A stretch of 64,000 nt of DNA from Dictyostelium discoideum (Eukaryota), in the NCBI GenBank assembly GCA_000004695.1, contig CM000151.3, positions 992,001 to 1,056,000 on the forward strand, written 5' to 3'. Shown one piece after another: positions 35,709 through 49,803 of the stretch. Below the pieces are notes generated by a model. That model saw nothing but the letters and a program-made list of their open reading frames with translations, was not told the origin of the DNA and did not search any database. Positions within the stretch are counted from its first letter, which is position 1. Every line of letters starts with the position of its first letter. The position numbers and the translations under genes are program-made.

Positions 35709-36016
35709 TTAAAGAAATACAACTAAATCAAGTAAAGGGTTAATACTGAGTTGTGTTTGAATTAATTCACCTCCCAACAATCCAGCATTTTGTTGTTGAG
35801 TAAATGAGTTTGTGGTTGGAACAACTTCATTATTAATTCTTTGTTGTCTTTTTAATGATTGATTATTTGAAATTGATAAAATTGATTCTATTTTATTTTA
35901 TAAATTTTAAAAAAAAAAAAAAAAAAAAAAAATATATTTTAGTATTAGTATTTTAAAAAATTGACAAAAATAAATTTAAATTTAAATAAAACCAAACACA
36001 TACTAATGATTGACAT
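35709..36016 (-). pseudogene. Frameshifted member of a small-protein family resembling hssA/2C/7E. Exon 1 is 36004-36016 (MSII plus 1 nt), the intron is 35886-36003, and exon 2 is 35709-35885.
   Basis: It shares the ATG + 3 codons + GTATGT donor + phase-1 intron + TAG acceptor layout of four paralogues in this window. Exon 2 reads K-SILSISNNQSLKRQQRINNEV, then shifts frame near 35819-35823. The paralogue-like C-terminus (..NAGLLGGELIQTQLSINPLLDLVVFL*) is in the +1 frame. The in-frame product is only ~44 aa. Confidence 0.45.
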
Positions 36017-36960
36017 TTTGATTTATGTTTTTTAATTTGTTTTAGGATTTAGTTAATTGTTTGATTTGTTATTTTATATTATTAATTTTTTTTTTCTCCT
36101 TTTTATAGATTGTTTTTTTTTTTTTTTTTCATTTTTATTTTTTTTTTTTAAATATATTGTTTTAGTAATAATTTACAAATTTTTTTTGAATTTTATTGAA
36201 TGGGCCAATAAAATTTAAGATTTTAATTTAAAAATAAAATTTTTAATAAAATCATTTATACACACCAAAAATAAGAAAAAAAAAATAAAAAATTAAATTA
36301 TAGGAAATAAATAATAATTAAAATTAGTCATACGAAATAATATAATTAAAAAATGATTGTAAAATCGAATTGGATTGGGATTTTAAAATATAATTAATAG
36401 TGGGTTTAATATAAAAAAAGTTACAATTCTTTTTTTTCAATATTTTTAATAATAAAAAAAAGTATAAATTGGGTGTGTGGGAGGTGTACTATTTAAATTA
36501 TTTTTTCACATATATAAAATTACATTATTAATTATTAAAATTATAAAAACTATTAGATTTTAAAAATGACAATTATTAGTATGTAAATTATAGAATAATT
36601 AATTAATTTAAAACAAATCCCATTCAATATTTATAAAAATTATTTTCTAACAAAATTCTGTGTTTTGAATTATAATTTTTAAATATTTTTTATATTTTAT
36701 AGAATCAATATCAATAATTGCAGATAAATCAATATCAAAAACTAATTTTATTAAAATTAATAATGAAAATGATAGTATAGTTATTATGTATACAAATAAT
36801 CAAAAAATATCAAAATCAAGGGGTCAAATATTAGATTCCCATATAGTTGTAAATCCATTAATTGATTTTAATTTAATTTTTTAAAAAAAAAAAAAAATGA
36901 TTAAAAAAAAATTAAAATAATAAAAATAAAACTGTATTAATTTATTTTTAAAAATTCTTT

Positions 36961-37266
36961 TTACAACCCTAATGTAGCACCAACAACAAGACCAAGTATT
37001 AAAACAACCCCACCAACTAATTCTAATAAACCACTAACCAATCCTGTTTTTTCGTTTGACCCTTGAATATTATTTGGAGGATTGATTGAATTGTTTATGC
37101 TATTTAAATTATTTTGACTTTTATTTTTATTTGTGATTTTTCCTAATGAAGAAATTGAGTCTATTATTTTTTAAAAAAAAAAAAAAAAAAATATTAGTTT
37201 ATTTTATTTTATTAAATAATAATAATGTGGTTTTTTTTATTTATTTAACCTACTAATTATTGTCAT
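36961..37266 (-). CDS. Small protein resembling the hssA/2C/7E family, 70 aa. Exon 1 is 37254-37266, the intron is 37161-37253 and exon 2 is 36961-37160.
   Basis: The spliced product is [70 protein letters not shown]. The donor is GTAGGT (phase 1) and the acceptor AATAG. The N-terminus MTIINSISS matches my recollection of the family signature (MT-I/L-x-x-SISS). Confidence 0.55.
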
Positions 37267-38562
37267 TTTTATAAATATTTATAGTTTTAAAGTTTTAAAT
37301 TTATTAAATTAATTTATTAATTAAACAAGTTGTTTTTTTTTTTTTTAAATTTTTTTTTTTTTTTTATTCTGTTATTAACTCTATTTATAGAGTAAAGTAT
37401 TTAGATTAATTTACTTGTTTGCAAATTGTAAAAGGAATCATACTTTAAGAATTTAAGATTTTAATAAATTTATTAATTAATTAATTATTTTTTGTATAAA
37501 AATTAAAAAAATAACAAATACTACATAATATATTTTTTGTTGATTTATTAATAAATTATTATTTCCTTTTCAAATTTAAACCACCTAGCCTACGTTTCTT
37601 AAAAAAATAAAAAATAAAATAAATAAAAAAAAAATAAAAAAAAAAAATAAAAAAAAATAAAATTTGGTTTTTTTTTTTTTATTAATACAAATATAGGTGT
37701 TCTCCAAAAATGTAATTAATTAAAAAAAAAGCGAAAATATGATGGTTTTAAAGATATTTTAATTTGAAACTTTATTTACCAAATAAAGAATCATTAACAT
37801 TTTAAGCATTTCGGACAGTAGCAAATGTGTACCAAATTAGTAGATTAAAAAATTTTTATTTTCAATTAAAAACACCAAAATTTTAAACCTTCAAATACCA
37901 AAAAAAAAAAAAACATTAATACTATTGAAATTACCAAAAAAAGGTGAAAGGAAACACTCAAAAAAAAAAAAATTTTGAGATATACTAGTTAAAATAAATT
38001 AATTTTTTATTTTTTTATTTTTCTTTTTTTTTTTTTCAAGTAGATATTTTAATCTAAAAAGTTTCTATTTTTGAAATAAAAAAAAAAAAAAAAACAAACT
38101 GTTTTTCACTACAATCAAACGTTTGGATCCTGGAATCAGTTTTTTTATTTTTTTTTATTTTTTTTTTTATTTTTTTTTTTAAAATTTTAGGTGGATCTTA
38201 TTAAATAAATTTTCTTTAAGATTTCCGGAACACCTGCATATAAAATAAAATGTAAAAAGTTAGATATTTTTTTTTAAAAAAGTAAATTGATTGCAACATA
38301 TTACGAAAAAAAAAAAAAATCTAAAAAAAAAAAAATAAAAACAATTAAAAAAAAAATAAAAAACAATAAAAAAAAAAAAAAAAAAAAAAAAAAAAAAAAA
38401 AAAAAAAATTAAAAACTGTGAATAAAAAAAAAAATAAAAATTATTTGGTACAAGCCCCTGAAACAGAAAAAAAATAAAAAAATAAAAAAAAATAAAAAAA
38501 AATAAAAATTGTGTAAAAAAAAAAAAAAAAAAAAAAAAAAAATCCATCAACAAAAACCAAAA

Positions 38563-47393: not shown

Positions 47394-47721
47394 AAAAAAA
47401 AAAAATAAAAAAAAATAAAAATAAAAATAAAAATAAAAAAATAAAAATAAAAGAAATAAAAAAAAAAAAAAAACCAATATAAATAATTAATTAATCTTAT
47501 ACATTCATAAGAAAAATTAAAATAAAAATTATAATAATAATAATAATAATAATATATATTAATATTAACATAATAAAAATAAAAAAAATAATTATCCCTA
47601 AAAAAAAAAAAAAAAAAAAAAAAAAACTATTTTCATTTTAAAATTAATATTTTTTATTTACAAAGTTTTATAATGTGTTACTAATTTAATATTTTTAAAT
47701 GTTATTTTTTTTTTTTTTTTT

Positions 47722-48055
47722 TTAATATCTACATGCACAACCACCACAAGAGCCACAACCACGAGAAATTGATATATTAATATCAATGTTAATTGAAGTT
47801 TGTCTAATTGGGAAAATACCACCACCAACACAACCAGTATAGCATTGAATACTATTTGAACTTTTTGATGAAGTGGAACCAGTTGAAGCAATCATTGATG
47901 ATTTTGAAGCAGATTTTAAATTACTAAGAGTTGAGATTGATTCTGTATTTTTTAAAAAAAAAAAAAAAAAAAAAAATAAGATAAAAGGAAATTGTAAGTA
48001 TTTAGTTATTTTTAAAAGATAGTTTTTTTTAAAAAAAAAACATACCAAATAACAT
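47722..48055 (-). CDS. Small protein resembling the hssA/2C/7E family, 76 aa. Exon 1 is 48046-48055, the intron is 47943-48045 and exon 2 is 47722-47942.
   Basis: The sequence ATGTTATTTG|GTATGT...ATACAG|AA splices to MLF-E-SISTLSNLKSASKSSMIASTGSTSSKSSNSIQCYTGCVGGGIFPIRQTSINIDINISISRGCGSCGGCACRY. It has an S/G-rich core and a C-terminal Cys-Gly cluster. Confidence 0.55.
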
Positions 48056-49428
48056 TTTAGATTTTAATTAGTTTTCTTTTTTTTTTTTTTTTTTTTTAAA
48101 AAAAACTTGGAATTTGATTATTAATTGTTTGTTTTTGAGTGAAATTGAATTTAAAATTTCAGACTATTTATATCAAAAAATGAACGTATGTTTTTTTAAA
48201 ATTTAAAATAAATTAATAAAAATTAATTGAATATGGAAATTGTAATTTACCAAAACAAAAAAAAAATATTAGATTTTAACGTTTTATTAAATTACAAGTT
48301 TTTATCATATGAGCAATTTTCCAAATATTTGTTCAAAAACAAAAATTACAATTAATAATATGATAGTAAAATGAAAGTGGGGGAGTTATTGTTTGTTTCT
48401 ATTATCATTTAGAAGAATAAAAATAAATATAAAATAAATAATTATAAATAGAAAAAAACCAGATAAACATGAAGAATATTAAACAATAATTTAACCCCCA
48501 CCGCTATAACATGTCACAAATTATGCTAATTTTTTTTAATAAATGATAGTTACTGAGCGTTTTTAACACACTTTGGTGTTTAATTAATAAAATAATCAAC
48601 TCACCCCCAAAAAAAAAAAAATTGATGAAAAAAATAAATGAAATGTATAGTTTATTTAGTTATTAAGTTTATAAATATATATTAAATAAAAATATTAAAA
48701 TTTACTGAAGAATTTTAATTATTAAAAATTTTATTTTAATTTTTTAAAGATGACTAAATGTACTTTTATTCACCCCAATTTTGAGTATTGTTGGTAGTTT
48801 AATAAATAATTTTTATGTTTAGTTTTATTTTTTAAACATTTTGAATCTTTTTTTTAACTAAAATTATAGAGAAAGGTTTTTATAGTTTATATTTCTTTTA
48901 AAATAATTTAAGAAAATTTATTAAAATAATTAGTAACATCCCAAAAAGTATTTTAAATAAAAATAATATTATTGCTTTTTGGGTAGAAATAAAAAAATTA
49001 ATTTTCCAGTTTGTATAGAAATTAAAAAAAAAAAAAAATATATATAATTATTAACACAAAAAGGTCGGGTCTAATTAATAAAAACTAGTAAAAATAAATC
49101 AGTTTATAAATATTTAAATCATGATTTTAATAAGGAATTGAAATTAATTACAATATTGGTTGTTTTTAAAATTTTTTCAAAGAATATTTATTTATTCAAA
49201 ATTAATTGTTTTTTTTTATTCTTTTTTTTTTTTTTTTTTTTTTTTTTTCATTTTTTTTTTTTCAAAATTAAAACAATAAAATCTAAATATGAAAATAATT
49301 TAAAAAATGTAAACTTTCTTTTATTTTAATAATTATGATTTATTTAATTTTCTATTTACAACCAGTCATAGTTATTATTTTAATATAAATATTATAATAT
49401 TTTTTTTTTTTTTTTATATATATTGATT

Positions 49429-49803
49429 TTAATTACAACCACCACCAACTAAACCATTAACAACACCACCAACAATACATAAGACACCACTAACGGCACC
49501 TCTATTTATAATAACACCACCAACAATTGGTCCTGTGGAATTTCCACAACCACTACTATTACTCATTGGACCATTGCATTGTATAATATTATAATTCATG
49601 TTTGATGATTGTGAAGAAATATTATTTATTATTAATTTTGAAGAGTTTGTTTTAATATTACCAATTGAACAAATAGATGCTATAATATTTTTTTTAATTT
49701 TAGAAAAAAATATTTATTAATATTTTGAAAGTTTTAAAATATATATAATAATTTTTTTTTTTATTTTTTATTAAAACTAAAGATATTTACCTAAAATTGC
49801 CAT
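49429..49803 (-). CDS. Small protein resembling the hssA/2C/7E family, 87 aa. Exon 1 is 49791-49803, the intron is 49680-49790 and exon 2 is 49429-49679.
   Basis: The sequence ATGGCAATTTTAG|GTAAAT...TTATAG|CA splices to MAIL-A-SICSIGNIKTNSSKLIINNISSQSSNMNYNIIQCNGPMSNSSGCGNSTGPIVGGVIINRGAVSGVLCIVGGVVNGLVGGGCN. It is not in the ORF track. Confidence 0.55.

Follow-up and report, generated by a model that had tools for sequence, protein, structure and literature searches.

A probable cluster of six small two-exon genes of the hssA/2C/7E (sigN) superfamily on Dictyostelium discoideum chromosome 2

Introduction

What do the very small genes with a first coding exon of 10 or 13 nucleotides (nt) represent in a segment of Dictyostelium discoideum chromosome 2? 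The segment is a 64,000-nt stretch of contig CM000151.3 (positions 992,001 to 1,056,000 of the forward strand), referred to here in its full length as the window. A first-pass annotation, made from the letters of the sequence, had proposed five such genes, assigned them to the hssA/2C/7E family of small proteins and regarded one of them as a probable young pseudogene. The questions are whether these genes belong to that family, how many there are, and whether all of them are intact. The explanation preferred here, with a probability of roughly 0.85, is that six small genes of two exons each lie in the region, and that they represent the Dictyostelium-specific hssA/2C/7E (sigN) superfamily together with offshoots that have diverged from it.

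The sigN-related genes are a large group described by Vicente et al. in 2008 (BMC Microbiol 8:1). The group is composed of 96 genes that encode proteins of fewer than 120 amino acids (aa), and 89 of them have the 13-nt first-exon layout (PMC2257962). This micro-exon layout, i.e., an open reading frame (ORF) of 13 nt in exon 1 (10 nt in a few genes) followed by a single intron, is a published hallmark of the family (PMC2257962; PMC6198379). The sigN genes are treated as part of the hssA/2C/7E family by Kin et al. (PMC6198379). The literature has recorded the family since 2008, together with its clustering, its 13-nt first exon and a size of about 100 genes, and five of the six gene models described below are already in GenBank.

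Gene structure and location

The six genes are designated g1 to g6 (Table 1). They are located on chromosome 2 of D. discoideum AX4 at approximately 1.028-1.042 Mb. The models of g1-g5 were rebuilt from the raw sequence, and each interval begins with ATG, ends with TAA and contains one sensible spliced ORF. All five models proposed in the first-pass annotation are reproduced exactly. The general layout that it gave (a tiny exon 1, a GT donor, an AT-rich intron and exon 2) is borne out for g1-g5, where the introns are 79-116 nt long. The G+C content is 22.9% in the window, and is 6-12% in the introns versus 17-32% in the coding parts.

Several details of that description are to be corrected. 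The TAG or CAG acceptor is observed in g1, g2, g4 and g5, and the acceptor of g3 is AAG. The products had been given as 70-87 aa; the upper end is right, and the range is 63-87 aa. The N-terminal pattern that had been proposed fits g4 only with a gap of one residue, because exon 1 of g4 has one codon fewer. The description of Cys-Gly C-termini in g4 and g5 is correct, and g4 is indeed the only one of the five that is found, in part, among the mechanical ORFs (47722-48048).

The products of g1, g3, g4, g5 and g6 are identical, residue for residue, to AX4 proteins in GenBank/UniProt, so four of the five models first proposed are exact GenBank proteins. The UniProt name of g4 is 'Protein sigN132'. 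In the PMC6198379 supplement, DDB_G0271918 (g6) is tabulated at chr2:1,028,566-1,028,884, which places the window at chr2:992,001-1,056,000. The exact product of g2 and three alternative splice forms of it were not found in a collection of 15 billion proteins, in which g1, g6 and g3 are present. The g2 model may have been dropped from the current AX4 protein set.

Table 1. Positions, structure and interspecies substitution ratios of the six genes, and position of the G/C-rich box between g1 and g6 (window coordinates; dN/dS and Fisher p from the comparison with D. firmibasis).
Feature	Identifier	Position	Strand	Exon 1	Intron	Exon 2	Product	dN/dS	Fisher p	Remark
g1	DDB_G0271930	35709..36016	-	36016-36004 (13 nt)	36003-35888 (116 nt, GTATGT...TAG)	35887-35709	63 aa	0.23	1.9e-4	
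g6	DDB_G0271918	36566..36884	+	36566-36578 (13 nt)	36579-36702 (124 nt, GTATGT...TAG)	36703-36884	64 aa	0.47	0.03	
g2		36961..37266	-	37266-37254 (13 nt)	37253-37161 (93 nt, GTAGGT...TAG)	37160-36961	70 aa	0.21	6e-6	
g3	DDB_G0271888	40903..41206	+	40903-40915 (13 nt)	40916-40994 (79 nt, GTAAGT...AAG)	40995-41206	74 aa	0.19	4e-7	
g4	DDB_G0271934 (sigN132)	47722..48055	-	48055-48046 (10 nt)	48045-47943 (103 nt, GTATGT...CAG)	47942-47722	76 aa			
g5	DDB_G0271896	49429..49803	-	49803-49791 (13 nt)	49790-49680 (111 nt, GTAAAT...TAG)	49679-49429	87 aa			
G/C-rich box GGGTGTGTGGGAGGTGT / GGGTGTGTGGGAG		36471..36487								shared g1/g6 divergent promoter, 95 nt upstream of g6 ATG; GC-rich 9-mer run in AT-rich spacer

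The sixth gene and the shared N-terminus

The whole window was scanned on both strands with a regular expression for an ATG-initiated exon of 10 or 13 nt, a GT...AG intron and an ORF with the family N-terminus. The scan recovers g1-g5 and one further gene, g6. The earlier count of five is correct in that all five are real, and a sixth member had been overlooked. g6 is arranged head-to-head with g1 and is transcribed divergently from it, with an ATG-to-ATG distance of 550 bp. No seventh family copy is found in the window by the scan of micro-exon models or by tblastn with nine family proteins. One additional match of the expression, at 62635-63000(-), is a spurious triplet-repeat ORF that is unrelated to the family. 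Translated, this model contains 17 consecutive Cys codons from a triplet repeat of the TGT/TGC type; presumably it is an example of the simple-sequence repeats that are typical of coding DNA in this genome.

The N-terminus was evaluated by scoring residues 2-12 against the N-termini of the two Pfam-positive genes with a 13-nt exon. The pool was made up of the 63 models of the form '13-nt exon + intron + ORF of at least 45 aa' that are mechanically possible in the window. Family members score 24-53 overall, including 27 for g1 and 24 each for g3 and g6. The highest score of an unrelated model is 13, and the median lies at -4. The N-terminal signature thereby sets all six genes apart from the rest of the micro-exon models possible in the window and, judged from the sequences, the N-terminus shared by the family genes is beyond chance.

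Family membership

All six genes have the gene structure of the family. Exon 1 is 13 nt in g1, g2, g3, g5 and g6, and 10 nt in g4. All six products are below 120 aa (63, 64, 70, 74, 76 and 87 aa). The products were also compared with PF05710 ('Coiled'), which we take to be the hssA/B-related family model and which has a gathering score of 21.4 bits. This score is passed by g5 (33.1 bits, 85/90 profile positions), g4 (28.9 bits) and, marginally, g2 (21.8 bits). For four paralogues of g2 (UPF0519 A, UPF0519 C, P0007 and P0009) the scores are 12-23 bits, around the threshold. A database 'coiled-coil' match is mentioned by Vicente et al. (PMC2257962).

Three of the genes have a matching entry in the published table of Vicente et al. 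The entry sigN132 (chromosome 2, 10//220, intron 102, 76 aa) is g4, with a constant offset of -1 relative to the counts used here. The attributes of sigN110 (DDB0168566; chromosome 2, 13//250, intron 110, 87 aa) fit g5, and those of sigN122 (DDB0168559; chromosome 2, 13//199, intron 92), the sole 70-aa entry, fit g2; both show the same offset of -1. The match is by name for g4 only, and by chromosome, exon and intron sizes and protein length for g5 and g2. The spacing from DDB0168559 to DDB0168566 appears to agree with the gene order from g2 to g5. A literature search with the DDB_G identifiers returned only unrelated 'SIGN 132' clinical guidelines, and a search of a large protein collection with g5 returned nothing.

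The compositions of g4 (S18 G9 C6) and g5 (S13 G15 C5) fit the family pattern of much Ser, Gly and Cys with little Lys/Arg. These two genes are bona fide members. g2 contains Gly and Ser and no Cys. It is 74% and 70% identical, over nearly the full length, to UPF0519 proteins A and C (DDB_G0274343 and DDB_G0292598; E 4e-19 and 5e-16), and shares their N-terminus and their hydrophobic Gly/Val/Leu tail. These two and a D. firmibasis protein are the best relatives of g2. g2 is a member of the UPF0519 subgroup, at the edge of the family.

g1 and g6 form a pair that is linked to this subgroup. By BLASTP, g1 aligns with g2 over residues 1-61 and with g6 over residues 1-58, and tblastn of g1 against g6 within the window gives E=0.006. 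Both products possess a C-terminal NPL[LI]D[LF] motif. In hhalign, the g1/g6 group aligns with the UPF0519 group over 47 columns (E=4.8e-5, probability 68%). Against an ad-hoc hidden Markov model (HMM) of the family, built from seven Pfam-positive sequences, g1 scores 19.1 bits, a value reached by 0/500 shuffles, and both halves of the protein contribute; the signal of g6 is at the N-terminus only. Where UPF0519 A and C have the Gly/Val/Leu tail, g1 and g6 instead have NPL[LI]D and a short hydrophobic end. g1 is a detectable but divergent relative of UPF0519 A and C, and it is not filed as a UPF0519 member because it is only a remote relative and lacks the tail. Their sequence similarity marks g1 and g6 as divergent offshoots that are related to the UPF0519 subgroup. 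The relation of g3 to the family appears to consist of gene structure, N-terminal signature and location only.

The likeness to the hssA/2C/7E (sigN) family is in protein size (<120 aa), the single intron after a 13-nt (rarely 10-nt) exon, the conserved N-terminus, the Ser/Gly/Cys-rich composition of g4 and g5, the clustering and the location of many members on chromosome 2. The locus differs from the studied sigN clusters in position, at approximately 1.03 Mb versus 0.82 Mb for Group 2 and 2.24 Mb for Group 1.

Conservation in D. firmibasis

The genes were compared with a 20-kb locus of D. firmibasis (L001, from CM069770.1), in which gene models were re-derived. Four of the genes (g3, g2, g6 and g1) have intact orthologues in this locus, and their order and relative orientation agree with those in D. 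discoideum. Every one of these orthologues consists of two exons, the first of which is 13 nt long and is followed by a GT donor. The g2 orthologue (RB653_010025) adjoins the g1 orthologue (RB653_010026), which is syntenic, 62 aa long, 73-74% identical to g1 over the full length and aligned to it with a single one-codon indel. The g6 orthologue is a 62-aa two-exon model at L001 9178-9452(-); its first exon is 13 nt long, its donor is GTATGT and its intron measures 86 nt. In D. firmibasis it is annotated as a 36-aa product only (L001 9178-9288), and this annotated model is probably truncated.

The ratio of nonsynonymous to synonymous substitution rates (dN/dS) was estimated by the method of Nei and Gojobori, and a one-sided Fisher test was applied to the same counts (Table 1). 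The exon-1 differences between the two species are silent in g1, g2 and g3. The C-terminus of g3, VNSTVITESFKLLDNPW, is identical at 17/17 residues; the last 51 nt of its coding sequence contain 5 synonymous and 0 amino-acid changes, and the rest of g3 is approximately 70% identical. The last 20 codons of g6 contain 5 nucleotide differences and 1 amino-acid difference. Because dN/dS is 0.19-0.47 and the syntenic orthologues are intact, g1, g2, g3 and g6 encode proteins and are subject to purifying selection. All four are older than the split of D. discoideum and D. firmibasis. A recent local duplication is not supported, given the one-to-one orthologues of g1, g6, g2 and g3; the duplications, being older than the species split, are not 'young'.

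The same comparison bears on the integrity of g1. The first-pass annotation took g1 for a probable young pseudogene that carries a 1-nt frameshift relative to g2, in a set of genes that had undergone repeated local duplication. It is true that g1 is shorter than g2 (63 versus 70 aa) and lacks the Gly/Val/Leu tail of g2, and that, when their second exons are naively aligned as DNA, indels that are not multiples of three are needed. However, the family phase is the sole open frame of g1 exon 2, and several stop codons interrupt each of the other two frames. The BLASTP alignment of g1 with g2 runs in a single frame, no match of g2 or the UPF0519 proteins is found by tblastn in any other frame at the g1 locus, and the NPLLD motif that g1 has in common with g6 is in frame. 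The annotated D. firmibasis orthologue differs by its one-codon indel, and the dN/dS of g1 (0.23) is significantly below 1 (p=1.9e-4). The frameshift is refuted by three-frame translation, by DNA and protein alignment, by tblastn and by the orthologue, and a pseudogene is highly improbable. g1 is an intact, conserved gene.

Alternative explanations

A number of observations weigh against placing all six genes in the superfamily. g1, g6, g3 and their D. firmibasis orthologues have no PF05710 match even at E<=10, and no entry of the published 96-gene table fits g1, g6 or g3. These three genes differ from the family further in having no Cys (with little Gly in g1 and g6) and in possessing their own conserved C-terminal motifs. 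For g3, the ad-hoc HMM gives p ~0.06 from an N-terminal signal to which the body of the protein contributes nothing, and hhalign with the family covers residues 1-12 only, at a probability of 2%. An exhaustive phmmer search with g3 against 1.84 billion representatives finds g3 itself and low-complexity matches, and no relatives. The dN/dS of g6 is the highest of the four, and g6 is given 0 transcripts per million (TPM) in cup, stalk, spore and vegetative cells in the PMC6198379 supplement. The splicing of all six genes is predicted from the sequence. At the level of function, deletion of 13 sigN genes gives no phenotype (PMC2257962), six other family gene knockouts have no developmental phenotype, and hssA is reported to act through RNA, as frame-shifted constructs also work (PMC6198379).

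These observations raise the alternative that g3, and possibly g6, is an unrelated orphan gene for a small protein. The short exon 1 and the Ser-rich N-terminus would then be convergent, or would have been acquired by capture of exon 1 and promoter from a neighbouring member. In addition to the profile and search results for g3, this alternative is favoured by a report on Mef2A, in which g3 is listed among prestalk small proteins in a group said to show no significant similarity to hssA (PMC3640940); for g6, it is favoured by the fact that the N-terminus alone matches the family profile. On the other hand, the intron of g3 is likewise in phase 1 and follows nucleotide 13, and its N-terminus, which shares the signature M-T-I-x-x-S-[FI]-S-S-[FL]-G, scores far above all remaining candidate models of the window. 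g3 is also located less than 4 kb from three other members in both species. g6 is tied to g1 by similarity over the full length and by the common C-terminal motif, and g1 is tied to the UPF0519 group. An orphan origin is unlikely. Since no relatives of g3 are detected beyond its orthologue and its similarity is confined to 12 residues, its common descent with the family rests on exon layout, N-terminal signature and location.

A second alternative is that the arrangements are chance coincidences of ATG, GT and AG in AT-rich DNA, and that the GenBank entries are unverified predictions. In its favour, 63 models with a 13-nt exon can be built mechanically in the window, the GenBank names read 'hypothetical protein', and g6 has a value of 0 TPM. 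Yet the frame, exon 1 and splice sites are conserved across species with an excess of silent changes, which contradicts chance for g1, g2, g3 and g6. g2, g4 and g5 have Pfam matches, and RNA-seq reads are reported for g3. The archetype of the family, sigN1, is verified by cDNA and has the same gene structure (PMC2257962). Coincidence can be set aside for practical purposes.

Membership in the superfamily or its offshoots is retained as the preferred explanation for the six genes. The assignment to hssA/2C/7E made in the first-pass annotation is right in kind, given that g4 is sigN132 and that g2, g4 and g5 pass PF05710; it is not supported in that form for g1 and g3, which have no PF05710 match and are outside the 96-gene table. 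Its statement that the products are homologous is supported at the sequence level for part of the set, the similarity of g3 being limited to approximately 12 N-terminal residues.

Introns, C-terminal modules and candidate promoter boxes

The fixed micro-exon and phase-1 intron had been suggested to hold a conserved regulatory element. No 7-9-mer is common to at least four of the six introns, the same result as in shuffled controls. Orthologous introns are 50-60% identical versus 78-82% for the coding sequence. This comparison, with no shared k-mer and introns less conserved than exons, speaks against the proposed element, and the introns look like ordinary Dictyostelium introns. Most simply, the fixed position of the micro-exon is a relic of common ancestry and not a regulatory device. 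This is in line with Vicente et al., who concluded that the micro-exon was inherited from a common ancestor (PMC2257962).

The C-terminal modules are of several types. g4 and g5 have the Cys/Gly-rich or Gly/Val-rich module of classic sigN proteins. The tail of g4 is Cys/Gly-rich (RGCGSCGGCACRY), and the C-terminal half of g5 is Gly/Val-rich (Kyte-Doolittle value of the segment 1.93) and ends in GGGCN. g2 has the hydrophobic Gly/Val/Leu module of UPF0519 proteins, with a strongly hydrophobic stretch of 19 C-terminal residues (Kyte-Doolittle 2.49). The module of g1 and g6 is composed of NPL[LI]D and a hydrophobic end, and that of g3 is the conserved 17-residue end described above. The C-terminal modules are taken as the functional ends of these small proteins because they are the protein parts best conserved between species.

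The divergent promoter shared by g1 and g6 contains a G/C-rich box (Table 1). D. firmibasis keeps this box as CCCCACCCC together with the flanking ATTTATAC. The box is a candidate G-box (GBF-type) element; G/C-rich, GBF-type motifs are reported in the promoters of sigN Group 2 genes (PMC2257962). Three further G/C-rich boxes, TTGGGGGTGAG, GGTGGGGGTTAA and CTCCCCCAC, are observed at 48375-48620, 330-555 nt upstream of g4, in very AT-rich surroundings. They are likewise candidate G-box/GBF-type promoter elements. No such G/C-rich box is found within 700 nt upstream of g5.

Neighbouring genes and rearrangement of the locus

The family genes are interleaved with unrelated genes, as had been noted at first. 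The neighbours encode an alpha/beta hydrolase, a glutathione S-transferase and an amino-acid permease. The block from g3 through g2 and g6 to g1 spans 3.4 kb in D. firmibasis versus 5.5 kb in D. discoideum. Two ORF regions of the window that are interleaved with the small genes lack a counterpart at the corresponding syntenic site in D. firmibasis. One, at 33934-35238(-), encodes a 434-aa protein with a weak B-box zinc-finger match. The other, at 38509-39954(+), contains ORFs of 181 aa and 251 aa with no Pfam match.

The two loci differ by a rearrangement. L001 149-3652 matches window positions 18518-21840 in the same orientation, and L001 4186-20280 matches window positions from 44103 down to 23777, inverted. 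The breakpoints are near 22-24 kb and 44.1 kb of the window. The amino-acid permease, g4 and g5 are without a counterpart in the 20-kb D. firmibasis locus because of the breakpoint near 44.1 kb.

Expression and possible function

Expression data for the genes of this locus come from published comparisons. The RNA-seq reads reported for g3 number 81 versus 2 when mef2A- and wild-type structures are compared (PMC3640940). The identifiers of g1, g3, g4 and g5 are not among the low-expression rows listed in the accessible part of the PMC6198379 supplement, a weak and indirect indication that these four genes are expressed. Cup cells express one clade of the family at extremely high levels (PMC6198379).

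The sigN genes of Groups 1 and 2 are induced at 10-12 h in prestalk cells, and an antibody against Group 2 disaggregates mounds (PMC2257962). Vicente et al. propose roles in adhesion or the extracellular matrix, with redundancy, and single out sigN110, the candidate for g5, for an epitope-like sequence (PMC2257962). A protein-level function is not to be assumed for every member, because hssA is reported to act through its transcript. Another relevant protein is SRCP1 (serine-rich chaperone protein 1), of approximately 9 kDa, which is included in the same large class of small Dictyostelium proteins whose expression is regulated in development (PMC8554618). SRCP1 is serine-rich, and its activity is located in an aggregation-prone C-terminal module (PMC8741877). 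By composition only, the tails of g2 and g5, which are hydrophobic and rich in Gly and Val, fall into the same general category.

In the preferred explanation, the six genes have kept the ancestral layout of the family. The coding exon 1 of 13 nt (once 10 nt) supplies M-[TSA]-I-[IL] and one additional nucleotide, and is followed by an ordinary AT-rich phase-1 intron. Exon 2 completes the conserved N-terminal signature of approximately 12 residues (MxIIxSIxSxG), after which come a Ser/Asn linker of low complexity and a C-terminal module that varies between the genes. By analogy with other family members, the six genes are probably developmentally regulated, cell-type-specific and largely redundant. 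Their products are probably small proteins that act through the C-terminal module. Candidate roles suggested by relatives are in the extracellular matrix or cell adhesion, as for SigN Group 2, and in a pseudo-amyloid chaperone-like action, as for SRCP1.

Significance

The addition to what is known of this family is modest. The 'hypothetical' genes DDB_G0271930, DDB_G0271918 and DDB_G0271888 are tied to the exon layout and the N-terminal signature of the family. Two small annotation gaps are identified, i.e., the absence of g2 from the protein collections searched and the annotation of the D. firmibasis g6 orthologue as 36 aa. The purifying selection on g1, g6, g3 and g2 supports a function at the protein level, in a family for which an RNA-level effect has been reported for hssA.

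A bolder interpretation, to which we give somewhat less than an even chance, is that g1/g6 and g3 are unrecognised, fast-diverged offshoots of the hssA/sigN genes. They would have kept the micro-exon and the N-terminal dodecapeptide, and the Cys/Gly module would have given way to new motifs at the C-terminus (NPL[LI]D and a hydrophobic end in g1 and g6; the conserved 17-residue end in g3) that are under strong purifying selection. If this is true, the N-terminus and the micro-exon would be a reusable 'leader' for the evolution of different small effector tails.

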